This document shows, in pieces, positions 3,901 to 52,667 of a stretch of 64,000 nt of DNA. The stretch's first letter is position 1, and every line of letters starts with the position of its first letter. The notes beneath the pieces were generated by a model. It was not told where the DNA came from, ran no database searches, and saw nothing but the letters and a program-made list of their open reading frames with translations. A program made the translations under genes and the position numbers. The DNA is from Catajapyx aquilonaris. Its lineage: Eukaryota. The stretch lies in assembly GCA_000934665.2 (NCBI GenBank), contig KZ538183.1, forward strand, positions 1 through 64,000, in the 5' to 3' direction.

Positions 3901-6049
3901 GAGATCCCGGTAATCTGCATGGGCGAGAGATTGGCTTAGCCGCGAAGACAATTTTTTAACTAGGAAGTGGATGGATCACTTGGCCCTTCCTCCGACACCG
4001 TCTCATGCGGCCAAGATGTGGGAAATGTGTATACCTCGTCTCTCTCCGGATTATACCTCGCGACACCCGTTCTTGGTAAGTCTAGAACTGGTATGGAAGC
4101 ATCCCACCTTGGGCATCACTTGCCCTCCCTCCGCCGTGCCCTTCTCATAATCCCCTGCCTTCCCATATGGCCCTTGGCACCCGGGGCAAGTTCCGCTCGG
4201 ATCGAAAACACAAAACCTGGCTTGCACGTGGTTTGTCGCTATAGGGGCAGCCACCTTTTCTCGTGCTTAGAGCTTCCATCCTTGCCGCTAGAGGAAACCT
4301 GTGTTCGGTGCTGATTTTTAAAAAATCGATTTTGACTTGAAATTTTACACTTATGGTGCATTTGCTACCAAAACTGACCGGATATTCAGAATCAGGGAGT
4401 CCTGCTTGATTTTTTAAGCCGAACATGCAAAATCACTGAACCCTTCCTTTAAGATTAATTTCAGTTCTTGCACAACTCTCTGGGTAAGGTTGTTTGAGAT
4501 ACCATGCAGCATTTTAATCAAATTCAGCCATTCTTGTAACTCCAATGAAAATTCTTTTTTTAGCCAAATGGCCATAGGCACATTTGTTTAGGGTGGAGTA
4601 CTTCCAGTTTAAAACATCTGAACAATATCTGAAATACCAAGGGATACTCTTGGTACAATCTGATGCAGAATGACCCATTAAAGGGACACTCCACTCAAAA
4701 TACAAGTTGGGTTCTAAAAATCGGGCAAAAAATCCTGATTCCGAGGGTATAAGCAGTTTTTCTTAGAGACGAACGGTAAGGCCAGTGTGAAAGCTGGAAG
4801 GGTGTCGTTCGAAAAGCGCGCGCGGGGCGGTGGGCGCAGGTGGCGACGCCACCAGAGTGGAACCGGGCGGAACTAGAGAAGGTGATCAACAAACAACTGC
4901 CGCGCCAGGCTGGCGCGGCTCTCCTCTTCTCTCCTTCTCTACTTCTCCGGTTTGCCGCGAGATGCTGTTGTATCGCCCTTCTTAGCAGACGATGCGAGAC
5001 AACGTGTGTAGATATATGATTTTCCGTGTTACCGTTGGGCGTAGAAAAAAAACGATTGCACATTCGGAATCAGGATTTTTTGCCCGATTTTTGGGGGCCA
5101 ACTTGTATTTTGAGTGGAGTGTCCCTTTAAGCATTTACTGGTTCAAATATCCTACCTGAAGCACAGGGTATATATTGATGCAGTCCAGACCCTGAACCTG
5201 ATGTGGTTCCAGGCGATGAGGACACTTCATTTGTGTCAACACAGCAACAATCTTCTCTGTTAAAGAACTGTGAATGGAAACAGAATAATGTGACATATAG
5301 CAAAATGAAAGCAGTAATTACGAATACTTTTACCTACATTTTTTGTCCTATAGTAAGATTTTCTTGGAACAGCAGGTCGACGTCAACATCAAAATTGCAC
5401 ACTTCCAGGCACCAGGTAAGGCCTCCCACTATCTGCAAAACAGATACCAACAGTCTTTAATAGTGCCAAAAAATGCCACAAAAATTATAGCCTAGGCCAG
5501 GGGTATTCAACTAGTTTATGACAAGGTCCAGTATTTACCTTTCCTGGGCCATTCAAGGTCCCCCCCCCCCCCCCNNNNNNNNNNNNNNNNNNNNNNNNNN
5601 NNNNNNNNNNNNNNNNNNNNNNNNNNNNNNNNNNNNNNNNNNNNNNNNNNNNNNNNNNNNNNNNNNNNNNNNNNNNNNNNNNNNNNNNNNNNNNNNNNNN
5701 NNNNNNNNNNNNNNNNNNNNNNNNNNNNNNNNNNNNNNNNNNNNNNNNNNNNNNNNNNNAAGGGGTTTTTTTTTTGGGGGGGGGGGGGGGTTGAAGGTCA
5801 CGTGAGCTTAGGTGAAAGTGGGAGATTTGAATGGGTGCGTATTATAAAATTGGTAGCACTTTTTCCAAGAAATCATGAATTAGTAATTTCTAATGCTATT
5901 TCAAACTGTCCTGTATATCGTCGCGGTCCGGACAAAATTATGTCGCGGTCCACCAGTTGAATATCCCTGGCCTAGGCTACAGTTGATGTGAAACAAAAAT
6001 TTTATTCAAGTGGGTTTGAATTTACTGAGTCTGCAAGCTAAAAGGTGGC

Positions 6050-17942: not shown

Positions 17943-20900
17943 TCCAGCTGACACAGCCGGCAGCTTCAGTGTCTCGGAGACATGTGGGCTTTTCTTGCCA
18001 CTTTCGAGGATCTGATGAGTGTATGGAGCAGGGGAAGCAGGGGGTTTCCAAGCTAAATAAACATGTGCAGGGAACAAACGGTGCCAGACTTGGAACACTG
18101 CCAATGTGTGAGTGTGTGTGTATGCGTGTGCGTGTGTGAAAAGAGGGGGGAGGGAAGGTCTTGAAGAAAAAATGAAGCAATCGAGATGGCCCTCAGAGCA
18201 GCTGCTCAGCAGGTTAGGAGAGAACAAAAAAGGAAAAAAAAGGGCTACTCCATGGTATGAATTTCAATTTGAACCATGGAATCAGAAAACATGATATGTT
18301 ACTTGTAAAATGAGGCACTTATGCACTTCTTGGCAGTGAACATTGAATATCCACCAAAATGGGATGCCATTTTTCTCATGGCAAATGTAAACGAGGACCA
18401 GGTATCATGAAACCAATAGCAGTGACAGGTACAGAAAGGTACTTGTTTATTTAACTCCCCCCCCTGCCTCCCAATTCAGATAAGCTTATTACTTCATGCA
18501 GCTCTATAATTGTGATGTAGACCTCAGCGCCGGTTAACANNNNNNNNNNNCCCCACTCCCTGTATGGTGCTTAAAAATTCAATTTTTCTCTTGTGTTCTC
18601 TACTTTATTTTGTTATTTATTTTATTTAAAAAATTTATATTCCAGTGTATGGCTGACCCCAGAGGGCGGCCAGCCCTAGGCAATTGCCTTTTCTGCCTAT
18701 TGGTAAATCCGGCACTGGTAGACCTCATCCAGGCTTATGTAAATGGCTGGTTGACTACACACCTTAGCAATAAGTACATGTCACAGGTTGTAGGCATACA
18801 CATGCAGTAGGGGCAAATATTCTGCTGATGCAGCTTGTGGCTTACAGGGTGACCTGCACAATATGTACTTCAGTTACAGAGGGATGGGTACCATAAATAT
18901 TCAATAAGCAAGTAAAGAAAACTAAGGAAAAATACACTCAAACTAAATGAAAAGCTCAAGCTGACCAGGCTTATGGGTACTTCCAAAACATTAATTCCTA
19001 GCCAGGAATGATGAACACATGAAATCTGTCAGTCACACATTAATCGCTCCACCAGAAATATTTTCGGTGAGAAATTCGAATAACAACATGAATGAAAACA
19101 AGCGAAAGCTAGAACTGCAAAATGTGGCAGTAGACTAAGATACAGAGGTAAGCAATAGTTCATAAAAATTCACAATATTTTAACCCTTGCATCTCAAGTT
19201 GATTGTCACTCTTTTAAATTTTTTCCATCACATATGCACCTTTTCCATAAAAAATCATGTCTGGAGCAATGAAGGTGTGTCCTGCAAACTTCCTATCTCA
19301 TTTGTAAGCATTCTTTATGAATGTGGCAACTGACAAGATCCAGGGTACATTGTGAATTAATATGGTTTTACTGGCTACTTTCTGGTACTTGGGAGTTTGT
19401 TATCTTGAAGAAACAAAAAATAATCATGTGTTTTGATATCCACTTTATTTCCTGGTTCATTACACTGGTAAACTGGGAGTGCTCCTCTTCACTTTATACA
19501 TAAATTAGATCTTTTTGTGAGAAAAAACTAATTAACGATGTGAATGTGTAGGCCTACTCCCTCCTTTCGAAAAAAACTTGCCATTGCACTGCAATGTAGT
19601 GTTGTTCATGAATAACTGCATCTCATGCAATGCGAGCCATTTTTTGTACCATCAAGTGACGCTTACAAAATTGAAATTAAATACAAAAAGCACTACCTAT
19701 AAAAACAAAGAATCTCAAAATAACTTAAATCTGGTCTTATTTTTTCATTCATTGCAAGAAAAGGTTCCACAAAAATAACAGAGTTAAGCTACAATACAAA
19801 AGAAATGACAAAATTCCACTTGCATGTTAGTTAAGCTTAAGCAAAAAACGTTATATTTTTTTTCTGTAAAATAAACCTTGTGTATGTACAAGTTTCAGGG
19901 CAGCCATCCTGACTGCATTACACTCACATCTCCACTCAGTTGGCACCCCTTTTCATAACATCTAAATCTATCGAAGATAAATTCATTTCCTTGCTGCTTC
20001 TCCCTTGTTTAAAGATATATGCATTTATGATGCGATATGAAAAAGTAAAACTACATTACAAACATTAGTTCTCAGCTATATATATATATTTATTTGTTTA
20101 TAATTGTTGTCATATGTGTTTAAAAAATTCTGGGGATTAGTTGATTACTGGGAGAGCCCCCAGTAAGTCTTCAAATACAGGGTCTTTAACTGTTTCATTA
20201 AACCATTTGGGTAATTCAGCACTGTCGACTACACATTCAAGTAGCTAGTTCTTCATCACATAAACCTTTTATAATTTGTTATATCCTGTGCTTTTGTTAG
20301 CACATACATTCATTGCCTTAAATGTAAGAATAGTTAGATACATTGTCCAGGGCCATTAGTAGGCAAGTTGTGATTCACATTTGGGCACATGTCCTAATTC
20401 TCTTGCATAACGGGAATGGAGTGGCAGTCACTGTCATGTCACTTGGCACCACTAAAAACCTTTAATGATTGCATTGTCCCATGAGTTTCAAAATGGCTGC
20501 CTGACACTTCACAACCAAAGGGTCTATTCTCAACCAGATTCGCTGGGCCAAGGAATACACCATTGCACTAAATGGCTGAGAAATTACTTTGCCTCCATTT
20601 CTAGATGGCAAACACAAGTTTATTGGCAGTGATATGCAGCCAATTGGCATGGCACCAAGCTTTCCCTGCTGTCTTTTGCTTTCAACATAATTTGACATGC
20701 TGAAAACTACTCCCTAATAAATGAAGGCTACCATAAATCCACAAGAAATTGACATTGCTTGTAATTTGGGGTTAAAATTTAGAATTAGAACTGGTATTTT
20801 GATTCACGATCAGTTTTTTGTTTTTACATAGGCAGTAGAAAAAGTGAATCCCTTTTTAATGGTGTAAGTACAGGCCCTAATGGCAATGTGGTATGTTTCA

Positions 20901-27357: not shown

Positions 27358-27717
27358 GGGGTCGTCCATATACCACGTGACCGATTTTTGCCCACTTTTT
27401 GACCCCCCCCCCCTCCCCCCTCCCAGTGACCGACCGTGGTATCCATTGGAACCCCCCCCCCCCCTTTTTCACGTGTTTTTAAAAAAATGTCAATGTTATC
27501 AGAAAAAACTCGATCGAAATTGATAGCTCCTCAACTAAACTGTTTAAGCACGTAAAAAACATGTCTCCCCATGTTTTCGGGGTCGCTGACTTCGAATTTT
27601 AGGTTATTTTGAACCCATGTGCACCTGCAAAGGCTCCCATATGTGCCAATTCACTGTGTTCAGAGATCCCACGNCCCCCCTCCCCCCAAAACGGTCACGT
27701 GGTATATGGACGACCCC
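27358..27717. mobile_element. PIF/Harbinger (Tourist-like) MITE
   Basis: TAA TSD and perfect TIRs GGGGTCGTCCATATACCACGTGACC. Confidence 0.85.
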
Positions 27718-27919
27718 TAAGGGGTTTGACCTGCAAAAAATGGGTTCCATCTTTGACATTGAATGCCAATTGTTTCCTGGCAGGCATTTTCACCAAAAAA
27801 GCAGCGAGAATTCTCACCAGAAATTAGTAGGTGAATAATGTCAGAGTTTGCACTCCGCATTGACCAAAACAAAATCATAGCTCAGGACAGTCCAGGGTCA
27901 TCTCTATACTATGATAATA

Positions 27920-28359
27920 CAGGGTGAAGGGAAACTCGCGGACAATCGCCAGGTAAACTTATAGTACTCGAAAAACTAATATGTATAGGGATGTGCAATT
28001 TGTTTTTGGCTCTGTTACGCAGTTAATGCATACGGTGCCCTTAAAGTGTAGAGGGCAGGATGGTGGAATATGAGGCAAAAATGACAAAGTGCATGGGTGT
28101 CGTACCCAGATTCTTCCTCTGACGGGATTTGATCACCTATTGCACATGGACGATGTGTTAGAGGACCAAGGCAAGGGACAGGAGGCCCTCGAGCTGACTT
28201 TTGCATCTTAGAAGCTGGCGGAACGGATGTGACGTCACGAAATTTTGACGCCGCTGTACGCATTAACTATACAACAGAGCCCAAAACTTATTGCACATCC
28301 CTATATTAGTTTTACTATCAGTCTACCGGGCGATTGTCCGTGAGTTTCCCTTCACCCAG
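27920..28359. mobile_element. Tc1/mariner-type MITE
   Basis: TA|CAGGGTGAAGGGAAACTCGCGGACAATCGCC ... inverted copy|TA. Confidence 0.78.
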
Positions 28360-30600
28360 TATAGAGAAGGCCCTGGCCAGTTTAAAAAATTTCGCCACTG
28401 CATCCTGGTCATCCTGGCCTTGAGTGGACAAAAAATAAGGATGGGTCAAACTTACTAGTGAAAATTCTCACGGCACTGCAGCATCGGCCCCTGGACAGTG
28501 TTGCTCAATTAGGTGGAAAATGAGAGCAGTTTTTCCAAAGTCAGAATCAATGGCAGGTCACCTGCATGTCTTATGAACCTAATGATACCACACTCAGAAT
28601 GGAAATAGGAAGGCATAGCATAGCCTTTCCATCAAACTTCCCATGATAAGATCTCATACTAAAGGAATGTGCATTTTTGTGCAAATGCAGCATAAAAAAT
28701 GACAAAACTTTGCTCTCATCTCCCCTAATTAGGCTATGTTTCAGTCTCTAGGCTCAATGCTGACACATGCTGTACATGGCACACTACTAGAAAAACCTCC
28801 CTTGTACCCCCACAAGCTGCTCCATGGCGGACATTGGTGGAAGCATGTACGATGAGAGGGAGTTGATTAATGCTTCCACCAACACCATGTTTGCCTCGGT
28901 GCTGGTTCTGCTTGGAGGTAGAAGACAATTTTTTCCCTGTAGTGTCCTGTGTCCTGCCAGGATGTCATCACATTCCAAAAAATAATGTGCAACCACACTT
29001 TACTTGTGCCGTGGGTGGGCTGACTCCCAAGCTGAGGCGAGGAAAGGAGATAAAAGCACATGGTAGAGGAGTGCCTGTGAGGTTGAGGTGGACTGGTTTA
29101 TTGGGGTAGTCAAAGCAACTACAGGCTATCTGGCATAGGTTCAGGTGAGATAGGAAGAAGGGTTTTGGTCAGTGGGACAAAGTGGGAGAACCCTGCGGAG
29201 ACCCATACAAACACAGAGAACCTCTCGAAATTCCTGTCTTATAAGAAAACCCTTGTCCAAAGCATGGATTGAAAGCTGGACCTCAAGAGGCTGTGATGTG
29301 AACCACTCCTCCCCTGGTTGGGGTGGTGATGCCAGGGGTTGGTGATATAATGGGGCAACAGATTGGAGCATATTTTTCATGAACTATCTCCTCCCACCTG
29401 CCTACTGACTGCCTAGTTGGAAAGTAGCTCTGATTTCATTTCAGTACATTAAGAAACGCCATGATTCCATAAAATATTCCATTTATTCCTTATTTCGCTG
29501 CCCTTCACTTATCAACTACAACTAGACCATCTAGACCAATCCATCACCCCATTCAAACACATCATAAACAATCTCATTTCTGAGTAAATGAACTTATCAT
29601 AAGTTCATTTTGAAGCTAACAAAGTCCCAATATGGCTTCAACACATAGGAGGGTAGCAAGAATAAGGCCTACAGATGGGATTCTCATGGAATTTTTAGGG
29701 GTCCCATAGCAATGAACTTCTGTAAGAGTGATGTCCATACTCCAGAATTCACAAAGTGGAATTCTGGTGTTCTGAGCCCATGGAGTTAATAGCCCTGTAC
29801 TATAATAGCCTACTCCATAATGGGTAAAACCTTCCAAGGTGTACAAGATTTTTTAATTTTCTTGTGATTTCCTCGGGGGGGGGGGGGNGGATGGGACAGG
29901 CCTGACATTACACACCCTTCAAATAATTCATCTTAGCTGTTAATAAAACATTCCTTGCCCAAGTTAGAACTGTCTCATATCATGTAGTGCCACCCAACAA
30001 TGTAGCCAAGTTTTGAGTTGGGGATTGCTAGTCAACACACATACGATTGTTATGTGCCAAAATAATCTATCAGCCACTCGGATAACCAATCCCCTACTAC
30101 TTATGTTACTCTTAGTTAATATTGGAACTTTGAAAGCATGATTTTAAGAAATCCACAACACTTCAAGAGGGGAGGGGGTCCTGGGCCCTTGGGCTCCACA
30201 CTGGCTACATCAGTGGTGCCACCCACCCAATTGGTTGTCGCTTGTTTACGAAAAGTGCCAAGGCAGCCAACTGACGAGAACAAAACTTAAGCGTCCAAGA
30301 GTGATGACAGTAGGTACGAGACATGATTGTCCCTAATAACCTTAGGTTAACTTGTAAATCAGCTGGTAGTGGTGGGGTGAGGAGGGGAAGGGGGTTGCTT
30401 AACCCAAGAATGTCACATGGGGCAGGGTTATTTTCTTCAGATTTGCAAATATTTTTGTTACATGAAGGTGTTGTTGTAACATAAACTACACTTTCCATGG
30501 ACATTTGATGGAAAAACCATCCCCTATACCCCCTTCCTCTCCCCTTCTAACAATTCCAACCCAATGGTCTTGCCTACCGCCCTGATAGAAGCAACTGCGA

Positions 30601-31221
30601 TCAACTCAAGTTGAGCTTGACGGTGCTCCACGATAGACACTTGGGCGGCACCCCTGCAGCTGCTGCGACGACAGAGGCGACGGAGGCGGCGGTGGCAGAC
30701 GAGGAGGCGGAAATGGGTGCCCCCCCGTCCGACTCCGAGGAGGAGGTTGCCGCCCCGCCTGAGGATGCAGCAGAGAACCCAGTCTTAAGACGCTTGGCCA
30801 AATGGCACTGAGTGTGCTTGTTGAGGTGGTCCTTGCGGCTGAAGGCCTTCCCGCACTCTCCGCACTGGTACGTTTTCTCTCCACTGTGGATCACAAAGTG
30901 CCGAACCAAATGGTCATTGCGCTTGAATGTCTTGAGACACACGCTGCATACATGGCGCCTATCTTCATCAGGTGGCGCCACAGGAGCAGGCCGACGTGGC
31001 TTCTCTGGCTGGCGGCGAGGCTTCGGGATCAGCTGGTGATGAAGTGGGTGAGTTGGGGCATGGCTTGTGACGGGGGGCGGGGCTTGCTGGGCCGCGATCG
31101 GAGCTTGCTGAGCTGCAATCGAGGGGCACTCCACCACCAGATTGGTCATATGACCCAGGAAGGAGGCCTCGACTGTGGCGACAACCGCCGACTGGTGGAC
31201 GCCCCCGCCCCCCGGCACTAG
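30601..31221 (-). CDS. Putative stop-codon readthrough extension of the zinc-finger gene, 206 codons with two more C2H2 fingers
   Basis: Open and in frame with the upstream CDS across a single TGA (31224-31222) followed by CTAG. Encodes HVCSVCLKTFKRNDHLVRHFVIH-SGEKTY-QCGECGKAFSRKDHLNKHTQCH. Confidence 0.75.
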   Translation of the reverse strand, partial: LVPGGGGVHQSAVVATVEASFLGHMTNLVVECPSIAAQQAPIAAQQAPPPVTSHAPTHPLHHQLIPKPRRQPEKPRRPAPVAPPDEDRRHVCSVCLKTFKRNDHLVRHFVIHSGEKTYQCGECGKAFSRKDHLNKHTQCHLAKRLKTGFSAASSGGAATSSSESDGGAPISASSSATAASVASVVAAAAGVPPKCLSWSTVKLNLS

Positions 31222-31224
31222 TCA
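31067..31224 (-). promoter_or_regulatory. Candidate readthrough signal: UGA-CUAG plus a 3' long-range stem
   Basis: mRNA reads UCC UGA CUA GUGCCGGGGGGCGGGG. Bases 31218-31203 pair with 31082-31067 (CCCCGCCCCCCGUCAC) at 15 of 16 positions. Confidence 0.7.
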
Positions 31225-32415
31225 GGACATGACCGATGGTGATGCTGTCTCCGCCGCCGCCTCCGTCGTCGCAGCGCTGGCGCCGCCCCTCCGCCTGTGA
31301 CTCTGCGTGGAAAACTCGGCCTTAACCCTCTTGGCCAGGTGTGTGTGGGCGTGCTTCGCCAGGTGGTCCCTACGGCTAAAACCCTTCCCGCATTCGGTAC
31401 ATACGTGGCTCTTGTCCCCTGAGTGGATGACCCCATGGCGTGCTAGGTGCTCGTTGCGCTTGAACCCCTTCAGGCAAACGCTGCACACATAGGGACGCTC
31501 CCCGCTGTGCTCCTGCTTGTGCCGGTCCAGGTGCTCTTTCCGCTTCAGGCCGGTCCCACACAGGTCGCACACAAATGGACGTTCCAGCCGGTGACCCAAC
31601 ATGTGCTGCTCCAGCTGGTCCTTGTCAGTGTAGGCCACATGACATTGGGGGCAGCAGTACAAGGTAGATCCATCAAGCGCTGTGGTGATCTGTATCTCAC
31701 CCGGAGCTACCCCACGCTTCTTATCCTTGGCAGTAGCCTTCTTCTTCTTCTTTGATTTGACTGGCTTCAGAGGCTCAATACCAGCAGGTGGAGTGTAGCT
31801 GTTGACTCGAATCAGCTGACCCTCAGCCTTCTTCATTGACTCAGCTGAATACTTCAGAAACTGGTGCAGACTCAGTGGAATGGTAGATGGTGGAGGGAAA
31901 CGGGACAGGTAGTCATTGACACTGGTAGATGAACCAGGTGCACCAAACTCAGGCCAAGCACTACCCTTGCGCTCCTTGTCCTTATCATCCTTATCCTCCA
32001 TTCGTGCCACTGTTGCCACTGGTGGGATTAGAATGTTGGCCCCCTGTGTGTAGGTCACGTGGCGGATAGGTACTCCCTCCAGTGTGGTGCTCGCTGGGAT
32101 ATACTTTGCACTCAAGGTTGCCATTCCAATGTTTACCAGTGGTGGAGCTGGAGTAGGTGGGGCAGAGATTGACCCTGAGCGAGGGTATTTGATTACATTG
32201 GAGGTCAAGGTTGGGGAGGAGGTAGATACCTGGTGTGAAGGCTCAGCAGGGGCAGAAGTAGTAACCAAGGAAGGGGGTGGAGGAGGGGGAGGTGGCATGG
32301 AGTTGGTAACAGTAGTTGTAGTACTGGCAGGGTCGTGTGGAAACTTGGCAGTCAGCTGATGAATCGGAGGGAGTGGTGGAGGGGGAAAGTGATTCCCAAA
32401 AGGGGAGAAGTTCAT
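31222..32415 (-). CDS. C2H2 zinc-finger transcription factor, 397 aa, four fingers, intronless CDS
   Basis: ORF from MNFSPFGNHF with a Pro/Ser/Thr-rich N-terminus, a basic NLS-like tract (KSKKKKK), PGEIQITTALDGSTLYCCPQC and four C2H2 fingers with SGERPY-type linkers. From memory it resembles the insect CG12071-type family (unverified). Confidence 0.92.
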   Translation of the reverse strand: MNFSPFGNHFPPPPLPPIHQLTAKFPHDPASTTTTVTNSMPPPPPPPPSLVTTSAPAEPSHQVSTSSPTLTSNVIKYPRSGSISAPPTPAPPLVNIGMATLSAKYIPASTTLEGVPIRHVTYTQGANILIPPVATVARMEDKDDKDKERKGSAWPEFGAPGSSTSVNDYLSRFPPPSTIPLSLHQFLKYSAESMKKAEGQLIRVNSYTPPAGIEPLKPVKSKKKKKATAKDKKRGVAPGEIQITTALDGSTLYCCPQCHVAYTDKDQLEQHMLGHRLERPFVCDLCGTGLKRKEHLDRHKQEHSGERPYVCSVCLKGFKRNEHLARHGVIHSGDKSHVCTECGKGFSRRDHLAKHAHTHLAKRVKAEFSTQSHRRRGGASAATTEAAAETASPSVMS

Positions 32416-33880
32416 TGTCACCTTGGGGGGAGTGTGAGGAGGACACACTCAGGAAGCTGTTTGTAACCAAAGGCACTGTCACTAGTCACTCACTTCAGAA
32501 TCATTCTTGTGTGTTCCAGTAAGTATATTTTCCTGAGTGGCACAGTTGAGTCTGTTGAATGTAGCCAGCAGCTGCAGAAAAAAGAGCGAATAAGAGTTTT
32601 TTATTAATTGCAGGATAAAAGCATAACATTAGTAAACTCTCTGTATAACAAATGTAAAAAAAATACTTGAATAATATTGCATATCAATCCTAATATGTAA
32701 AAACTAATATTTTCAGCACATCACACAATGACTCAAAATAATTTCCTTTGATGTTGCATTGTAAAACTGAACGAACACTATCTGTCAATGCAATTCAAAA
32801 TAATTTAATTTCAATACTCCTCTACTCAAAACCGAAGCAGCACAATTAAGTAACTCACATCATCCTGTATGTGGACAGGAAATGTCTTTCAATAAAAACA
32901 CAAACTTCTTCCATGAATCTAAACATGGCACTAAAAAAACAAGTTGCATTAATTCATGAAAATGCTGACACAGAAATCAAACCAGTGGATATGTAAGAGT
33001 GGGTGTTATGACCTGCCTATTGACACCAGTAAATGATGACTGAAATGATATCTCTGGTTAGGAACAGAAAAAAAGCTACATATTAAATGCCAGGAGCCTA
33101 CCTCACTGTTGGAGACATGTTTTAACTCTTTTTCAGGGTTTTTCACCTTGTACTGTGGCCTAGTGTTTAGTTGAAGTAACATGCCAGGATATTCTCAATA
33201 GTGGGAGTGGAAGGGGACAGCTGGAGAGTCAGGTTTGGTTTGGTTTATTAAGAAGAAGCCAAAGCAACTATGACTATCTGGCTATGAGAAGACGCAAAGG
33301 TGGGACAGATGGAGAGAGAAACGAAGAAGAAAATAGAAGAGAGGAAAGATTGGTCAGGAGTCAGGAGTTGAGGCAAGTTGGGTATTGGATGTAGGGTAAG
33401 AACCCTAACTCTCACGTCTCTGGCCAATCTCTTCCTCCTCCAAAATTAAGAATATAATCAGCATATCACTTCAGCTATACACTGGGCCTCAAAATACACC
33501 CACTGCTGTGAACCCACAGAATAGGCAACACTTACCCTAAAGCCTCTGGATACTTCTTGCACGTTATTCACAACCAGCCCTTCATAACAGCATGTTACTA
33601 GCTTGCACCTTTCCCCATGTACTTTCCAAACCTAAGAAGACATGAAAATATTAGCCTGAAATAAAACTGTGGAAACCAGGGGCAACAACGTATTTCAGTT
33701 AAGCTGGGGCAAGCATTTTGGCGCCCCCTCCCCCCAGAGCTTATTCTAATGAATTTTTAGAACTGCACAAAAAAGACATGTCCAACTTGTAATAGGCAGA
33801 ATGAGAAAAGTGCCAATAAGCCCACCACAGGCGAAATTTTTGTTGTTCAAGGTCACACAAGCTTAGGTGAATGTAACAAA

Positions 33881-34597
33881 GTAAGACCTCGATATAATGC
33901 TCCCGCATATAACGCTTTGCCGCTTTTAACGCTCCTTTTTTCTGGTCCCCATAAAGCCCAGTGGTATTTTCCCACTTATAGCGCCTCCCGCTTTTAATGC
34001 TTTCCTGCATATAGTGTCACTTTCCTCCCCATAATCATGATTATGGGGAGTAAAGTGACTGAATTTTATTTAATTTCTAAATCAGTTACAGATTTTTTTT
34101 TTAAAAAAATCTTTGCGGATTTTCCCTTTGTTCAGCGTTTATTTCTTGCTATAAGAAAAATCCACGTGTCAATATGTGACGGTCACCTTTTTTTATTAAT
34201 ATTTTTGTAGTTGAAAATGTAGGTTTTTGTTGATATTTTAAAAAGACAAAACAAGTAAAATCTCCGCTTCCTTGTAACCTAGCATGGCCGTTCTCATTTG
34301 TTTTATAGCTCTTTTGAAGACGCTTTCAGTCGTACCTTACACTTTTAATTTCTTCCCCATAAGTTTAAGCTTGAGAAATGAAATACCTCTGGATGAGAGT
34401 GGTCCTAAACACTGTCGGGATAAACTATGTGGTACTTGGGCAGGTCAGTTCAGGTTAACATGGTTTATAGGCTTCAATCGACATAGCAACAGTGAAGAAA
34501 TTCCTTTACTGAGAAAAGCGTGAATTAAATCATATATCCCACATATAACGCTACTTTTGGGTGGTCCCTTGAAGAGCGTTATATCGAGGTTTTGCTG
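33881..34597. mobile_element. Tigger/pogo-like MITE (degenerate)
   Basis: GTAAGACCTCGATATAA ... TTATATCGAGGTTTTGCTG|TA. Internal sequence is related to the fragments at 8840-9170. Confidence 0.6.
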
Positions 34598-41896: not shown

Positions 41897-44800
41897 TTAT
41901 GACAGGTCATTGATTTTTTTACACACTTCTTTGTATGACCAAGACCAACTTCCTCTGTGGAGTTCCAACAGTGTCTTGGCTCTCATTAGTGTACTTTTCA
42001 ATGTTTCAACTGCTTTTAGATTTTGCTTTTTGATATCTCCCTTTGATGCACATTGCTCTATATAAGCTTCTGCAACATCTGCCAGTTTCAGAAGTTCATG
42101 TGCAACTTCAACACTGTTACAACCAAACTTAGCAGAAGTTGAATTAATTGTTACGAGTAATTTTTTAATGGCTTCAGAATACCGTCCCTCATAAGATAAG
42201 TACATTGCCAATTTGTCTTGCACTTCAGTGAGTAAGGTATGGTTCCTGAATACAACCGGAACACACATTGATTCACATTCTGATAGTTTGACTGCACTAC
42301 CTTTCAGATCACCTTTATTCATAAGTTCAGTTGCATCCTTCAAATGATTTTGAGCACGTGCAATTGTGCCCAATTGGGCAGTGATATCCTTCATTGCTGC
42401 ACAGCTGCTACAGTAAGATGATGCGTCAACAGGTCCTGCACATGTTGGGCACATGACAGCATTGTACATATCAACTGATGTGTTGCTGCACTTATCACAA
42501 ATGCAAATAAAGAAGTACTGCTGCTTGAGGATGGATTGCCTTTCTTTGCGACTCATGCGTGCATGGTGGGGACCTGGAAGAAGATTAAAGTAATTGTTGT
42601 AAAATAATTTCTGAATTTTCTTGCACATTATAATGTTGGTACCTTCACATTATGGACGTAACATTTTTATAATGAAATACCAGGATCATTAAGATGAGCC
42701 AGTCAACCATAATTATGTGGACATGGTTATGAATAGAGCCAGGACCAAATGTGCTAAAAATTCCTTGAAATCTCACCTGCCAGTGGCCCCCAGAGTCTGT
42801 TCCTGGATCAGTTTCAGAGTGGATTGCAATAATTTTTCAGTTAGGTTTTTCCTAATGATGTTAGATGAAAAAAGTAAATGTCAATTTTTGCCAACTTAGT
42901 TTCCCAACTGATTTATTTGAATTTGAAAATCATGAATTTGAATGATTTCAAACTTCAGATGACAGTAGGTCCTTTGAGAATTTCTATTTCTTCAGCAATG
43001 TAATAAATGCTCAATTTTAAAAGCTGCTAATGGGGTCCTAGCCTTGGCCATGGCCTTGACCTGGGATTTGGGGTAATTTGTACACGAATAGCTCAACGAT
43101 ACATATAAACACGCATTCCACCACTTTTCGGCACCAAATTGTCATTCCTCAATAAAGTATCAGGGGTTTAAAAGTCACTCGCAAATTGGCGGGAAAACCG
43201 GGGGCATGGCCTCTGACCCAAGTGACATCAGCAGGCCATTGCCTCACGCTCGTTCGACTCGGCTTATTTACTGGCGGTCCCGTTCGATTAGGATTTACTT
43301 GCGATCATTCGATTCTGTAGTTAGGCAACAAACAAAGGAACAAAGCAACCCGGGTGCAATCCTGCCTCTGCATGTTGTTGTTTTTTTGACCTGAGTGAAA
43401 TCAGAGGGCAATATTTTTTGACCCGAGTGATGTCAGAGGGCAATACGATACCGTATAATTATTATGATCTTAGATCGATCATAGCTCGAAAACTAATATT
43501 TATTTCTTCAAACAAAAAACACCTAAATTAATTTAAAAATAAGGACGATTTTTTACATGGGTTTGCAAAATGTAGGCTAGGACCCCATTGTTCATTAAAA
43601 GGAACATTTCATGAAATTGATAGTTTCTCAGTCATGGATGCACAATATGGCAACCTTTAAGTGGGGTAATACAGTGGGAAATGAGTAATGCTCACACACT
43701 AACTCCATCAACATCTATTTGATGAACATTATGCAAATAATATAAAAACAGCCCATTTCCACTCATTTCCATAAAAAAATTTAACACAGTTTTTTCCTTG
43801 CGTCACCCACCCTTATATGATGGTTGTGCTACTTTGAGTGGAATTTTCGTCTCCCTGATAGTCACTGCTAACTTATCAGTACCATTGCCAACACTGGTAA
43901 GACTGCTAAGTTAGCAGTGACTATCAGTGGGACAAAAATTCCACCCTTTGCTTTTTGGAATACCTACACCCCTTCATTCTGATGTCTACAAATTGGTCCA
44001 CTTGTAGACGAGACTTGTATGGACTTTTAGGCATGTTTGGTCCTGGACTGACTCACAACAACGTACTTGTAGATATGGGTGGCTGGCTAACAATCTCCTC
44101 AATAAATGTTTAAGTACTGGCTCACATACTGGGATTAACTCGTGTTTGAAGGATGATGTATAATATTGTAGAATTTTCCTGCATGCTTCATGATATACAG
44201 TGAAACCTGCCCATTACGGACCCTGGGTATAGCGGAAACCTACAGTATCCATTGCAGAATAATTTCTGGGAGCGGGCATATGCACATGGCATACAATGTT
44301 TTTTTTTTACGGATATAACGGAACCTGCCCAACGTGGAAACGGAAGGGATTTTTGTCTCCCTCAAGAGAAAATCTCTGTTCATAACGGAAATCAAAAGGC
44401 TCACATTATCTCCTACGGGTAACAAAATAGAAACTACAGCTGAGTTCCCTATCGGGCCTCCCATGAGGCCTCTGAGTAACCCTTTTTGGACCGTGGGTGT
44501 GTCCCATAATTGCTGGAATTGCTACCAGCCCATGGCCTTGAAGATAAAGGGTGATGAAAGGGGACTATTTTTGGTTGGGGAACTCGAAAACCGGCTTGTG
44601 GGGCGGGTCAAAAAGATGTGATTCATGTGATTCGTAGGTGCCTTCAAATTTCGTTCACGGTTCAGCCCAGTTTTAAAATATCAGGGAAGAGGAAGAGGTT
44701 GGCTCAGGTTCAACATATTGCCCAAGTCCAGGCTGATGGTCCAATGGAGCAGGCAAAATTATAGCCCAAAATGTTGGTGTAGCAAAATTTATTGCTTCAA

Positions 44801-47800
44801 ATGGGTGCTGGAAAGTTTCCGCAATAAGCACATACAATAGGTCTACTGTATTGACTGATTTTGCACCATATTGAGGTAAGGTGCTTATTTCGGCTCTCCC
44901 CATTTTCCTCTCTTTCTCGCAAGCAAAAAAAATCAGTAATGTCCTTGATCTTAATAGAGCGGAAACCTATCAGTAACGAAAAAATTTTGGGGTCCTGTGC
45001 GATTTCACTATATACAGGTTTCCCTGTATTAAGTTACTTAATTCCTGAAAAACAAATATGTATTAAGCCCCATTGCTTTTTTAATACTTAATGTTAGTGT
45101 ACTCTTCAGTACCATCAGCAAGGATGCAAATACACACAGTTGTGTCCATCTTACCATAACAGTTGTAAACTTCTTGTCCTGCCTTGATATTACAAGCAGC
45201 CCTCACGATAAGAGTATCACCAAAAAAACAGTGGGTCACGTTAGGTTCACAAGCATGGTTCATCATGCTAGCTGATGGAAATATGGCTGTGGCAATCCTG
45301 ATCTGGCTCTCACTCTGAAACATATTTTGCAAGAGAGGATCATCCCTTTTTTCTAGTGTTGTCACAGCATGGGCATTGCAAACAAGTTGTGCCACATGGT
45401 GTAATAAAAGCACCGCCAGGTCTTCCTCACATGGCTTCAAGTCATCAGGTGAAAATGTTGTGTGACAGATCAAATACCGGCTCAGTAAACAAGCAGTCTG
45501 AAATTGAAAAGAAACTTTCACTAAAGACTACTCACTCATGGAAAGCATGGGAATAAGCAGGCTTTTACATAACTGGATTGTTACAAAAATTTTATGATTC
45601 CAACAAATGGGTTTTCTCCATTTCCCCCATGCAATCAAAATCCACTGGCAGCACAGTGATTGAACAGTCAGGTTTAGAAAAGTGCTTGATGTAATTGTGA
45701 GAGTAACTTAAACTGTAATTATCTGTAAGTTTATCAAGCACCAATGTAGGGTTCATTCATGTTGTTTGAAACTATAATTAAAACGTTGTTAGTTGAATCT
45801 TTCCCCCTGACTTTATTTCAAACCTGTCGTACTTAATTCAAACTAACTTAAATTCGAGCCACTACCTGCGGTGGTTTGGTACTGTACAAGTGCTTGAAGT
45901 TAACTTGTAGGAAGATAAATCGCACGGCAAAACCTTTCACAAAACCCCAGTTAGCAATCAGAGACAGTAAACTTACTCCACCTTACCCTACCTAAAATAT
46001 TGTCACATTCACAAAATAATGCTACTTATAAGTTATAACTAATAAGCGTCTATCATGCAGAGGTCCTTTTTTTGTAAAGTACAAAACAATACTACAAAAT
46101 TCTGCACCATGGCAGCTTCACATCAATCATGTCCTTGTATGGTCTAATTTATGAAAAGATGTGATAGAGATCTCTGCATCCATGACTGTTAATAGGGCGT
46201 CCACACTGCCACCAGTCAGCCATGTGATGCATAACTATAGCAATAAGTTGCACATGTGTGTTTCATACAAAGACAGCCTCGATATCACTGGGTGGGCTGT
46301 CGCACATGCTCTATATTCAAAAAACTAGTAACACAGATTCTGCAGGAATATAATATTTACATACTGCTGCATATTGAAGAACATCTTCTGGTTCCATCTC
46401 ATCTAGGTGAGTCATTAGGCTGAAGACAGCTGGATATCGATTGGATTTGTCACAAAACACAGATGATGTGTATGGTATTGCATTAGAAACTGAAGTCTTT
46501 TGTGCTAACAGAATCGTTCGAACAGCTAGATGTGCCACACCCACAGAATGAAGCAATGTGATTCCACAGCACTCCCAAAGGTGGTGTTGCTTCTGGGATT
46601 CATCACGACATAACTCAGAGCAGAACAGGGCCACAGTGCACGTTTCACACCTTCCAAAGGAGAATTCAAATTAGGGCCACATTATAACAAACTCTTCAAG
46701 CGATTGCATATGACCAACGAACAGATTTCTAGGTTTTTACCTATTTTTTATTTTGTAGGCAGAACACCGGAACCAAAATATCTATCCATTTCATAACACA
46801 AGGAACTCAAAAATTGTAGTTTTATAAAACCTAAAATTGACAATTTTGGACATTGGGACCTAAATGGCCTATTAGCGCCTATTATCACCTATTTATGCCT
46901 TTTCGTAATGTATTTTCGGCAGTTTTTACGTGTTTCCGTTCAAGTCATCCCTCCTGATTCAACCTGTGAATAGCGAAGAAGCTGTAGCCTATAGACATGC
47001 CAGATGAACTGGCTGTACAATACATTTAACTTTTCATGAATGATCCAGTTGGTTTGTGTGACGGCGAAAGGTCATTTTCAGCGTATCAAGTTGTACTGTC
47101 ACACAGGCATTGCCGATAAATAATAATAATAAATTAAAATATGGAACAACTGCTAATTTGTTACTGTGTTGCAAAATTATATGGGGCCCAAGTTGGGCCC
47201 CATGTAGGCTGTATTTTTTTAAATTTTTTTTTATTTTTGCATTACCCCACGGGGGGAGTTACGTACTCCTTAGGGGGGGTGGATTACCACCATTGGGGTT
47301 TTCGTTGGAGCCAGTTAAGATAGAATCTTATTAGTGTACTCCAAGGGTGGGTGGGAGGGGATGTGCAAAGTGCAAGTGCAATGTCTCTAATCGTCATTTT
47401 GTGAACTCCCCCGGGTGGCTTAGTCTGTCGAAAATTGCCACCCGAAACGAAGCCAGAGATGGCCCAACTCTGCACGAAAGAAGGTGGGAACCCCGGGTGG
47501 GGATTGAACCCGGGACCTTAACTTCCGTGGGCGCGCGCGTTACCGCGGCGCCACTCCGTCTCCCCTGTAGGCTGTAATATTGCATGGGACTGAAAATAAA
47601 TTATGACCTATTTGATTTTTAGTACCTATTTAAGAGCCTATTTTACCTGTTTTCAGGACCTAAATGCCTACCTATTGAGGTTTTTTTTTTTCGAACCTAG
47701 AAATCCATTCTTTGAATATCACACCACATACAGTAAACACATATAAAACCGCACTTTAAGCCTGCAAGTGTATCATCTGGCAGCAGGGGGAGACATACTG

Positions 47801-49858
47801 CATTTGTGACAACTGGCATTTTGTAATATGCCTGTTTGTAACTTTACTTAATTAATTTTGCAAATTACTGAATCCACAGCTAAGACATCCTGCACATTAT
47901 TTCCACCTTCCATCTTTTAAGCTCACATGGCAAGTCTGTTCGAGTTTGTCCAAAATTTCATGGCTATTGGGGATTACACCGCAATTCACAATTCACAAAG
48001 GTGGAGCTGCTGATGGCAGGCCTGAAATTATGGTGATGCATTCCAAATTTCCCTTGAAAAACATGCCATTGCACACTGCATTGGTTTCAAACTAATAGAA
48101 CTCTTGCTGCCTGCTAAATTTTGCATTTTTCCCGCCCAATCTTAATCACTAAAACCTTACGGAATGGGTGCTCTCATAATCTTGTAACACTGGTGGCACC
48201 GAGTTTCTTGATGCTCTGGCAACAATACTGAAGCATATGCCTCTTCCATAAACAACACATGCCCTGCCTGAATGTCATCTGCAGACACAATGTGGCGACC
48301 TTTCTGTGGGTCACACTTCAATGAAATCTCATTGGAAGCAAATGCGTATGTTGGATTTACACTCATTTTCAAGTCTATTTTAATTTCTTCACTTGCTTTC
48401 ACGTGCCTCTCACAAGCAGTACGTCTAGAAAGCAATTTATTTTTCAGGCTGTCTGGGCATTCACGTTGTTGCAAAGCCATGTTTATGTCAGCTATAGCAT
48501 ATTTATAATGTTGCATGTGGAACAATGCAGCTGAACGATTTCCCAGAGCGAGGGAGTATTCAGGCGAATTTACAGGAGCAAATATAAGGCTCTGAGTGTA
48601 TAAGGATAGGCTTCCACTATCATCGCTAACACGGAATTTATTGTTGCCCATGGCACGAAGCTCTGAAGACTTGGCAGCATCCTTGCACAGTTGAGTAGAC
48701 ACACAGTGATCCAGCCACAGCTGAAGCACTTCTCTGCAACACAGGAACACATAAAGTATGTGATATTTTTGTACTTGGAATAAGTTACAGTGTAACCATC
48801 AAGATATTGCTCTAATTATGAAATATAAACAATCCTTTGTTCAAAGTTGAGTCAAATGAAAATAAACCAGTCATGCTATACATACTCGTAGTCAATACAC
48901 AAATATAGTTGTGAATAAATTGAGGGACAATAATAATATTACTAAATCCTCTCCCTTACACATCCTGTCATGCCATAAAGGACGCCATGCTGGTAAGGAT
49001 CTCTTGCAATTTTCAGTTTGACCCCCATAAAAAGGGACTTTAACTGAACTGGCAAATTTTGATTTAAAAAGGGCCATGGGTGCTAAGAAAGGTAACAGCA
49101 AAAGCAAAGTTAACTGAGACAATGAGAAATTTGCAGTCTGGTGCAGTTCCAGGATTTGTTCATGATCATGTTTCAATAACTGCTGGCATTCTTCTATTTA
49201 AATACCTTTGCAATTAAGGCTGAAAATCTGTATCAGTACAGGGATAGGACACTGGTGATTGGGCAGGGAAAAGTTAAATCTGCTTAGAAAGGGTTCATAG
49301 ATCCATAAAGTAAATCAGGTCAGCATCTGTTCTCAAACGATGAAGCTCCTTTAACCCTGGAACCATGGCATGGGGTCTTTTAGGACCCCAAAGGAATTAA
49401 AATGCATTAAAATGATAATTACAATGAACTGTTGCCATTTAAAAAAGTATATAATAGAAAGTGCATGTTTATTTTGAATTGGCAATCATTTTAGGCATTG
49501 TTCAAAGAGTTATGGCATATAGTCAATACATTGAAAAGTATTACATAAAAATGAGGGGAGGCGCAGTGGCGCTGCGGGTCCCAGGTTCGATCCCAGCCCG
49601 GGGACACCCCCTTCATCTCGTGCAGAGTTTAGGTCGTCTCTGGCTTCGTCTCGGGGGGTATTTCCAATAGACTAAACCACCCGGGGAGTTCACAAAATGT
49701 ACCCATATCAGTCTGCGCACTGCACTTTGCACATCCCCTCCTGTCATCCTGCCCGTAGGCCCGGGCGCTTCAATGAATAGGCACCAGCTGTACCAATATC
49801 AAAATAAAGGTCTGTGTGATATACCCCCATTTGGGGGTGAGAGCTCTACCCCAGGATT

Positions 49859-50599: not shown

Positions 50600-52667
50600 T
50601 AGTTTCTTGTACCTTCTGCTTTAAAGGTTTTGTGGTCATTAGGAGAGGTGCAGGGGGGGGGGGGGAANNNNNNNNNNNNNNNNNNNNNNNNNNNNNNNNN
50701 NNNGGGGGGGGGGGGGAATCAACCACAAATTAGATGAGATGTGCTGGTTATTACAATGCTAGGTAATTGTGCAAAAGACGCGACCAAAGAACAGAAAATC
50801 TATGCATTTTACTAGGGCAAACACTTAGGCCCATTCACACAGGCCGTCGACGAGAACTAAAACCAAAACCATCAACGGCCTGTGTGAATGGGACTTAATT
50901 CCCACTATATTAGGAGTACACCAAGACCATGTTAAAAAAACAACCAGAAGTGGTTCTTCAAGGTGGTTTTGATACTGCTATTTCTTTCTACAGCTGTAGG
51001 GACATGTTCTGGGTCTCAAGTCCCAGGTTCCAGAACCATTTATATTGGTGTATCCTTGTGGCTTTGCTCCCGGCTCAATATGCTTATGTCTAACTAAAAT
51101 CATTGGGAAGTGAGACGGACTGTGCCCAGCAGGGCCACAATAAGATGGACAGTAATAGTACGGTCACACCAAAGACTCCCCAGATACACCAACAAAACGG
51201 GCTCCAGGACCCTGAACCTGCAACCAGGAGCAAGGGTTGTGGTGTCTGAAAGGCAACTCAATCTCAAAACCTGCTTCAAAAACCACTTTTGCTTGTTTTT
51301 TTCTCCACGAATACGGTCCTGGTTACTCCTAATAGTGTGAAGTGGCCCATAATCGTTTGTTGTAGGTATAATTATTTTGTACCGTATTCGTTGGATCACT
51401 TCTGCATTTACCCAGTCCTGCAAATAAACCCCCCCAAAAATACCTACCAGCTGTAGTGTATGAAGTCCTAATAAAACCTGAGGGACCATGCAGTACAGGT
51501 AGTTATGAGCATCACAGTATGGAGCAGCATGAAGAATGGTATACAGATGGTATACAGAGTACAGTTGCAAGTTGGAGGTGACGAGGTTAGAGTTAGAGAA
51601 CCACTGTCAAACCTGTTATCAGACAAGTGCACAAGTCAATGAGACATGGGAACTCATGGCATGCTCATGGGAAGGTGGGTAAACGGTGCCCTACGGTGGT
51701 AAACACGAAAACCCTCCGATTGCTCCAATTTCCACCGCTGGTGCGTACAGCGCCACTGACATTTTCATGTAAAAGATATAAGACTTTAAAATATGATAAA
51801 AAGACAGCATATATTACATATTTTATATGAAGTATGATGCGTACTGTAGAGTAGTCGAGAGTAGTGATGTGTCGAAATTAGCTACGCTGCTATTACATAA
51901 CTGCTAGTCTAGAGTAGCTGATTAGTTTCACTAGCAGCTATAATGAAAAACTATTAAACTAAACTAGCAGGTGTGAGCGTGAGACCCTGAACACCCAGCG
52001 ACCTTCTGACCTTGTTCTCACCTTCAGTCTTCGCTTGTTGATGGTAGTAGTACCCGGTGAGGTTACACTGCGGTTTCATTGCCATTGATTGCATTTTATG
52101 CACGCAGTTACGGGCGTCTCAATCCCGGAAGTAGGATTTTGAAGGTGCCTGCTAAGGGGGCGAATTGGGAATCTCATTTTGCTGGCCAGGTTGTAGCATA
52201 GATTCTTCGTTGGTAATAGCAAAACTCATACTGTACTGTAAGTGATGTCGGATGTCACACAGGAGTTCATGGATTGAATGTAACAAAAGTATAGCAATAT
52301 AATAGGTTTTGCATAATATGGAGTGTTTGATTACGTAGGTCCACAGTTCAACGCTACTGTAGATTAAAAGCTAGTGACAACCTGGTGCATAGGCACGTGA
52401 TGTTGACGTTGCGATTGTTGTGGCCTGTGGTTAGGTCTTACCAACGAGTCCCACAGATACTCAGCTCCCCTAGGGTAAGCTGTATGCTAGTTTGATTTTC
52501 ATTTATCGAGTGAATCTGGGGCTCTAAAGTTGGGGATACTAAAAGCATTTTAGGTGCAGTGATTTAATAATAAATTTGTCAAAATTCGAGCTTACTGATT
52601 ATAATATTACCAGCTAAGCTGGTACCTATGATGTAACTATGCTCAAACCACATTTCTTTTCCAGGCC

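Follow-up and report, generated by a model that had tools for sequence, protein, structure and literature searches.

Programmed stop-codon readthrough is, in our judgement and with moderate confidence, the best explanation for the architecture of a zinc-finger gene of Catajapyx aquilonaris in which two C2H2 fingers lie in frame beyond a UGA-CUAG stop. The gene stands on the minus strand of positions 1 to 64,000 of contig KZ538183.1 (assembly GCA_000934665.2), a stretch referred to here as the window. An ATG at 32415 opens an open reading frame (ORF) of 397 codons (32415-31225), the 3' end of which reads ...TCG GTC ATG TCC TGA CTA GTG CCG..., in agreement with an earlier, sequence-only reading of this DNA, which had named no strand. 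The same frame then stays open for 206 codons past the first TGA (31221-30604), up to a second TGA, and the read-through product would therefore have 397+1+206 = 604 residues. Translation and Pfam bear out the two intact C2H2 fingers and the LAKRLK motif that the same reading had placed in these 206 codons: the Pfam zf-C2H2 entry matches both the main ORF (E 3.4e-15, 3 stretches) and the extension (E 3.5e-9, 2 stretches), and a regular-expression search finds four fingers in the former (residues 253-359) and two in the latter (extension residues 90-140).

In the mechanism that we propose, the mRNA of the intronless four-finger gene would run on through the extension. Most ribosomes would stop at the UGA (31224-31222) and release a four-finger protein of 397 residues, and a fraction of those that arrive at UGA-CUAG would decode the UGA with a near-cognate tRNA and go on for 206 codons. 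Readthrough would thereby add an 89-residue low-complexity linker, a second finger pair of the F3-F4 type and a Ser/Ala-rich tail, to give 604 residues, and the long form would carry a tethered second reader of the same half-site, with bivalent binding or higher avidity as the result. Readthrough at this locus, its rate and its effect on DNA binding are all points that we infer from the sequence.

In human cells, UGA-CUA alone is reported to give 1.5% readthrough, and four UGA-CUAG genes are described as efficiently read through, up to about 31% for OPRL1 (Loughran et al., 2014, PMC4132726), in agreement with the earlier description of UGA-CUAG as a leaky stop context. Given such a context and an open frame on an unspliced mRNA, some 604-residue protein would be made, provided that the ribosomes of this organism behave alike. 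The abundance of readthrough in insects, which had also been invoked, is likewise reported: a survey by Jungreis et al. (2016, PMC5100048) infers functional readthrough at hundreds of stops in insects and a crustacean.

The features of the gene, all on the minus strand and listed from 5' to 3', are as follows (CDS, coding sequence).

31225..32415, minus: main CDS of 397 codons, apparently intronless (Pfam, and alignment A1 to 16 family members)
31699..31700, minus: GT of a donor-like site (cgg/GTGAGA, phase 1) in Gly239, just before F1 (heuristic splice scan)
31339..31659, minus: fingers F1-F4, residues 253-359 (regular expression and Pfam)
31222..31224, minus: first stop, TGA, preceded by TCC (Ser), at the position of the usual family C-terminus
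31218..31221, minus: CTAG directly 3' of the first stop, forming the UGA-CUAG readthrough context
30955..31221, minus: linker of 89 codons, Pro/Ala/Gln-rich, with a basic patch (PKPRRQPEKPRRP)
30802..30954, minus: fingers F5-F6, an old copy of F3-F4
30604..30801, minus: tail of the extension, LAKRLK followed by a Ser/Ala-rich stretch ending NLS
30601..30603, minus: second stop, TGA
29097..29857, minus: first poly(A)-signal hexamers 3' of the CDS (ATTAAA from 29857, AATAAA from 29487 and 29102)

The stop codon and the family C-terminus

The main CDS encodes an N-terminal MNFSPFG, the four C2H2 fingers and a tail that ends in SVMS, and it also has a DYLSR...LSLHQFLKYS motif and a Lys-rich region. 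It belongs to a well-conserved arthropod family (681 matches at E <= 0.001), in which the named best matches are all hexapods, except for two vertebrate poly-finger proteins. The automatic NCBI names of its members are inconsistent, and the family is without a settled name. Alignment A1, which holds the protein of this gene and 16 other members (17 sequences, 70 invariant columns), shows a common N-terminus, MNFSPFG..HQF.AKF, and the protein fits the motif MNF.PFG.HF...HQF.AKF. It also carries the shared motif DYLS.LP..LPLSLHHFLKYS and has the Lys-rich stretch, the TALDGSTL sequence and the four fingers with invariant KRK.HL and KR.E.L cores that the aligned members have in common. Its fingers (KRNEHL.RH, FSR.DHL.KH) place the gene nearest the group of P0099 and P0120. 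The family has several groups of paralogues, some of which stand in tandem in insects, as for L008 and L017 on one contig, and in P0001 (Timema californicum, 678 aa) two paralogues have been merged into a single chimeric gene model.

Family members end 30-60 residues past F4 in two hydrophobic residues and a serine. Among 120 matches listed, the last three residues are LLS in 28, ILS in 13, IMS in 5 and TMS in 5, with others besides. Since the SVMS of the window matches these [LIM][LM]S ends, the TGA would be an ancestral terminus and not a recent nonsense mutation in a six-finger ORF. By this comparison of sequences, the first TGA is at the ancestral terminus of the family.

The codon itself is confirmed in contigs from three DNA runs (X1, X2 and X4), each of which spans 29889/29890-33261 with 0 differences. 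These runs come from one sample, possibly the source of the assembly, and they therefore rule out a slip of the consensus and lend no independent support. The DNA-run contigs break at a single N at 29888, in the presumed 3' untranslated region; other single Ns lie at 27674, 37601 and 59508, and assembly gaps at 5575-5759, 18540-18550 and 50668-50703. A further run of unrecorded kind (X5, 8% of words) gave pieces at 29093-29328, 29486-29773, 29889-30147, 30174-30430 and 32161-32317, none of which lies over the stop or forms a joint in the gene, and nothing was drawn from them. The heptamer TGACTAG is not rare, with 5 occurrences in the window against 5.7 expected by chance. Two others on the minus strand flank this CDS, at 32482-32488 in what is presumed to be the 5' untranslated region and at 30028-30034 in the presumed 3' one.

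The codon is a UGA, as selenocysteine would require, and insertion of that residue is the least credible of the accounts that we considered. No match to a selenocysteine insertion sequence (SECIS) was found in 27500-33500 at E up to 1, and the codon lies in a disordered tail, at the normal terminus of the family. The only hit in that interval was to snoZ206, at 30591-30696 of the window on the plus strand, opposite the end of the extension; at 28.7 bits (gathering score 50; E 0.04), it is probably a chance match.

Fingers 5-6 and the coding signature after the stop

Fingers F5-F6 with LAKRLK are a copy of F3-F4 with LAKRVK (tblastn 66.7% over 63 residues; hhalign probability 99.9), and the peptides that the sequence-only reading had set in parallel (...HLAKRVK and ...HLAKRLK) were quoted exactly. 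Over 63 codons, the two copies are identical at 46/63, 50/63 and 25/63 of first, second and third codon positions; the proportion of synonymous differences (pS) is 0.87, which is saturated, and that of nonsynonymous differences (pN) is 0.22. F5-F6 is 70% identical to F3-F4 of the same gene and still 65-72% identical to the F3-F4 modules of insects, with one at 61%. Because pS is saturated while pN is low, the copy has been retained as coding sequence under long purifying selection. Judged from these substitutions, F5-F6 is an old copy kept by long purifying selection on the protein, and such long conservation implies that something expresses it.

All eight zinc ligands of F5-F6 and its contact residues are intact. 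In Zif268 numbering, the contact positions of the recognition helix are -1, 2, 3 and 6. They read R-E-H-R in F3 and R-D-H-R in F5, and R-D-H-K in both F4 and F6. Taking the contact residues of the two pairs as the same, the gain would lie in valency or avidity and not in a new specificity, and the added pair is predicted, as the likelier outcome, to read the same half-site as F3-F4. Of the earlier proposal that valency or specificity would be set during translation, the first part is thus the likelier and the second is weakened. AlphaFold2 on the extension alone gave a mean predicted local distance difference test score of 46.8 (55-73 in the finger region, below 50 in the rest), too weak to use.

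The frame beyond the stop has further marks of coding sequence. When the extension past its first codon (205 codons) is shuffled with its dinucleotides preserved, 3.2% of the shuffles have no in-frame stop; for the 87 codons of the linker by themselves, the figure is 27%. Codon usage was scored in three frames with a model trained on the main ORF, with cross-validated halves of the main ORF as comparison. In the linker, frame 0 scores +0.22 bits/codon, against -0.41 and -0.21 in the other frames, a value that is reached by 6 of 5000 shuffles and is similar to that of the cross-validated halves. In the control stretches, one beyond the second stop and one 5' of the ATG, every frame scores negative. 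In addition, the guanine-cytosine (GC) content drops from about 0.65 to 0.44 exactly after the second stop, and by codon position it is 0.79, 0.54 and 0.66 in the linker and 0.45, 0.48 and 0.40 right after that stop. No AATAAA or ATTAAA was found between the two stops.

These data bear on two further explanations. In one, the extension would be a silent relic, a partial tandem copy in the 3' untranslated region that was never, or is no longer, expressed as protein. Partial duplications are known in the family, in the six fingers of L032 and in tandem paralogues, and a very recent loss of expression could be accommodated. A relic is nevertheless improbable given a saturated pS with a pN of 0.22, intact zinc ligands and contact residues, and 0 stops in 206 codons, where the other two sense frames of the extension have 4 and 5. 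In the other, the ATG at 31149 would start a separate small protein of 182 residues with two fingers (MTNLVVEC...), either on a transcript of an internal promoter or as a second cistron, and the shared frame would be a coincidence. We give this account as little credence as the relic, despite the presence of an ATG-started ORF of 182 codons and the selection on F5-F6. Its ATG has a poor context (cat/ATG/a, with C at -3), arthropod start codons preferring A at -3, and reinitiation after an ORF of 397 codons would be unexpected. Moreover, a shared frame and a stop-free gap would arise together by chance at about 1/3 x 0.27; no family member starts in this way, A1 having its M at column 1, of MNF...; and a second extension with fingers, that of L045 (below), is without a Met before them.

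No homologue of the linker was found: residues 366-490 of the predicted 604-residue protein had no match among 2192 candidates. A search with all 206 residues of the extension brought 22 matches, and all 9 of those examined align to the F3-F4 region only. When representative proteins were searched with the 604-residue product, the best 150 matches were all giant poly-finger proteins and were uninformative. The idea that the linker is a condensed second copy of the gene was rejected, as hhalign aligns only F5-F6 and AKRLK to the family profile.

Paralogue loci and other observations in the window

A metagenome scan provided 51 family loci. For the count of codons at the terminus, we kept 17 loci that continue the family tail and dropped, by judgement, 19 regular-expression rows that lay after further stops or in other frames. 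TCC TGA occurs in 17/17 of the loci with the family end, which form five sequence groups, the window being a sixth. The codon before TCC varies among them (CTT, CTC, CTG, ATA), and members with other C-termini end in TGA, TAA or TAG.

Several of these loci have in-frame peptides after the stop. In the near-identical L001-L005, L008 and L009 (stops at 1420, 3712, 3202, 5105, 3166, 6474 and 2013) and in the distant L044 (stop at 469), the post-TGA peptides are 29 and 32 codons long, and both end in ...DL.AFVSAAK[DE]AF before a second stop (alignment score 72, reached by 0/5000 shuffles). Among the seven close loci, variable sites at codon positions 1, 2 and 3 number 0, 0 and 2 in the extension; the corresponding numbers are 0, 0 and 9 for the final 30 codons of the CDS and 2, 1 and 1 for the sequence beyond the second stop. 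From these comparisons, the AFVSAAK[DE]AF peptide is likely a conserved product of readthrough in insects. None of the 293 annotated proteins compared has the AFVSAAKDAF motif, but 90% clusters merge isoforms in that set, such that a spliced isoform may still carry it. A second set, L006 (3900), L007 (3902) and L033 (567), has 64-66 open codons after GSLLS TCC-TGA, His-rich and ending in ELNFLGHVKDF. Past the stop, L006 is separated from L033 by 4 synonymous substitutions, 1 nonsynonymous one and an in-frame 6-nt indel; this rate of substitution is no lower than that beyond the second stop, and the evidence is therefore weak.

The linker of the window was also compared with these peptides. Its derivation from a retained post-stop peptide of a paralogue was rejected, since 2291 and 2361 of 3000 shuffles score as well as the comparisons with L001 and L044. 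Against the L006 peptide, two weak matches (211 and 54 of 5000 shuffles) were obtained in windows chosen post hoc; they are not collinear and were likewise rejected.

One locus, from another organism, has the architecture seen here. L045 (333-893) has three fingers, then ...GEG TGA CAC... (a TGA-C at 651) and 79 in-frame codons up to a second TGA at 891. The post-stop codons hold two intact F3-F4-like fingers, with no Met and no plausible acceptor before them, and the distal pair differs from the upstream pair with pS 0.70 and pN 0.29. L045 is the only one of the 51 loci with a single in-frame stop between fingers and, as a single metagenome contig, it could be a pseudogene or an assembly error. 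Orthology of its two modules to the two in the window was rejected because F5-F6 is nearer the upstream pair of L045 (pN 0.29) than its distal pair (pN 0.39), which leaves a shared origin of the two architectures unsupported. In L032 (1100-2220), six contiguous fingers have arisen by internal duplication with no stop among them; the fourth finger is an F4/F2 hybrid, and an intron splits finger 5 after ...VCMK.

Two observations concern other parts of the window. A very high-copy repeat lies at 33123-33323 and 33726-33926, where the summed contig depth in run X1 is about 25,000 and about 5,800, against about 25 in the flanks, with many variant letters and loose ends. At 41897-48798, on the minus strand, three long ORF pieces (250, 148 and 213 residues) have, by eye, the look of exons of the SET-and-MYND type (NHACEPN, a Cys-rich stretch).

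Readthrough, splicing and known systems

A number of points weigh against readthrough at this stop. Codon usage, in windows of 30 codons, is ambiguous over 31295-31115, a stretch made up of the true C-terminal tail and the first ~35 codons past the stop, and is clear only from about 31070. The RNA 3' of the stop is without unusual structure (z -0.29), and the searches described above found no close orthologue, nor any orthologue with the extension. In the five paralogue groups, TCC-TGA is followed at +4 by A, G, G, G and A; the five group-C loci are open for just 15-18 codons past the stop and show amino-acid changes between near relatives; and L041 has 30 post-stop codons with no shared motif. 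An in-frame GT..AG pair would explain the open frame equally well. In the arthropod survey of Jungreis et al. (2016, PMC5100048), a centipede and an arachnid are given as species without abundant readthrough. Lastly, the fly survey describes readthrough extensions as disordered and without Pfam entities (PMC4999894), much as the sequence-only reading had characterized them, and this would make a folded two-finger extension exceptional: novel if true, and of lower prior. The same report also speaks in favour of splicing.

The GT..AG pair would make an in-frame internal intron (an "exitron") or an alternative 3' exon, with the donor at 31700 joined to 31217 (483 nt) or 31112 (588 nt). The product would hold the N-terminal region, the linker and F5-F6, without F1-F4 and the stop, and would thus represent a swap of modules and not an addition. 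Insect transcription factors, such as lola, fruitless, broad and tramtrack, often have alternative 3' exons that encode two fingers. By a general heuristic matrix, not one fitted to this organism, no GT of the CDS other than this donor exceeds 2 bits. Donor and acceptors are all in phase 1 and both introns are multiples of 3, from which the in-frame, stop-free arrangement follows automatically. Moreover, the AG of CTAG may double as a 3' splice site with a phase-1 exon start at 31217, such that CTAG would be partly explained as a YAG acceptor, and the signal in codon usage comes back near 31100, not far from the acceptor at 31112. On the other hand, the donor string arises from Gly-Glu coding (GGT GAG) alone, and one such GT..AG pair is unsurprising by chance. 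The pyrimidine tracts are weak at both acceptors (Y fraction 0.5-0.6), and CTGAC is too near the AG to be its branch point. No splice joint showed up in the sequencing runs, none of which is recorded as RNA. Splicing would also leave unexplained the conservation of TCC-TGA, the in-frame peptides of the paralogues and L045, which has no usable acceptor after its stop. On balance, we consider the splice unlikely, if well short of negligible; operation of readthrough and splicing together falls within the probability that remains.

Returning to readthrough, a history of the locus can be sketched, which we put forward tentatively, as possible rather than probable. An ancient TCC-UGA readthrough site may have existed at the [LIM][LM]S terminus; a duplicated finger pair would have landed in an extension that was already translated; and the context would then have sharpened to UGA-CUAG, with the efficiency of termination setting four against 4+2 fingers. 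By this account, another organism would supply a second case in L045.

If readthrough does operate here, it would show that recoding can alter transcription-factor valency, until now a task ascribed to alternative splicing, and this would be the first cellular readthrough extension known with a folded DNA-binding domain. It is tempting to speculate that a duplicated domain was tried at low dose behind a leaky stop, and that readthrough can serve as a nursery for new domains. The TCC-TGA of the family, with its partly conserved in-frame peptides, may prove of wider use than the single locus. Should the splice model be right, the gene would be an ordinary case of alternative finger modules.

Finger sets are known to be changed by splicing in Drosophila CF2, in which the number of fingers varies, and in lola, fruitless, broad and tramtrack, which have alternative finger-pair exons. 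As in the present gene, one gene there yields different finger sets with the C2H2 pair as the unit; here, however, the modules are contiguous in one frame, with a single stop in a leaky context between them. Hunchback and Ikaros have four DNA-binding fingers and two distal fingers, the distal pair being a constitutive dimerisation module unrelated in sequence to the proximal fingers. The 4 + 2 layout with a long spacer is the same here, whereas the distal pair copies F3-F4.

The vertebrate UGA-CUAG genes OPRL1, OPRK1, MAPK10, AQP4 and MDH1 share the same seven bases, followed by an in-frame ORF (Loughran et al., 2014, PMC4132726). As described there, all of them have UGA as the stop and conserve the sense codon before it, to which the TCC TGA across paralogues corresponds. 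Their extensions, in contrast, are short (13 residues in MAPK10, 28 in AQP4) and are presented without a folded domain, against 206 codons and two fingers here, and their CUAG is conserved across vertebrates, where ours is known from one genome (PMC4132726). In the ilarvirus CP-RT, a readthrough domain with a putative zinc finger is needed for function; by the account given, the virus is a plant RNA virus, and its motif is of the CxxC type and has its part in silencing suppression, which sets it apart from a pair of DNA-binding C2H2 fingers (PMC11166343).

The insect and crustacean cases are alike in kind, in that the present gene encodes a transcription factor with hexapod-like relatives, a TGA-C and coding-like sequence in frame 0. 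They rest on multi-species codon-substitution signatures (Jungreis et al., 2016, PMC5100048), and our case on comparisons among paralogues and a single-sequence test. In the Drosophila POU factor Vvl/Drifter, readthrough of a transcription-factor mRNA likewise yields an extended isoform whose activity is altered (Zhao et al., 2021, PMC8417969). The Drifter extension is described as intrinsically disordered and is implicated in transcriptional activation (PMC8417969), whereas the extension predicted here would bring fingers of the DNA-binding type.

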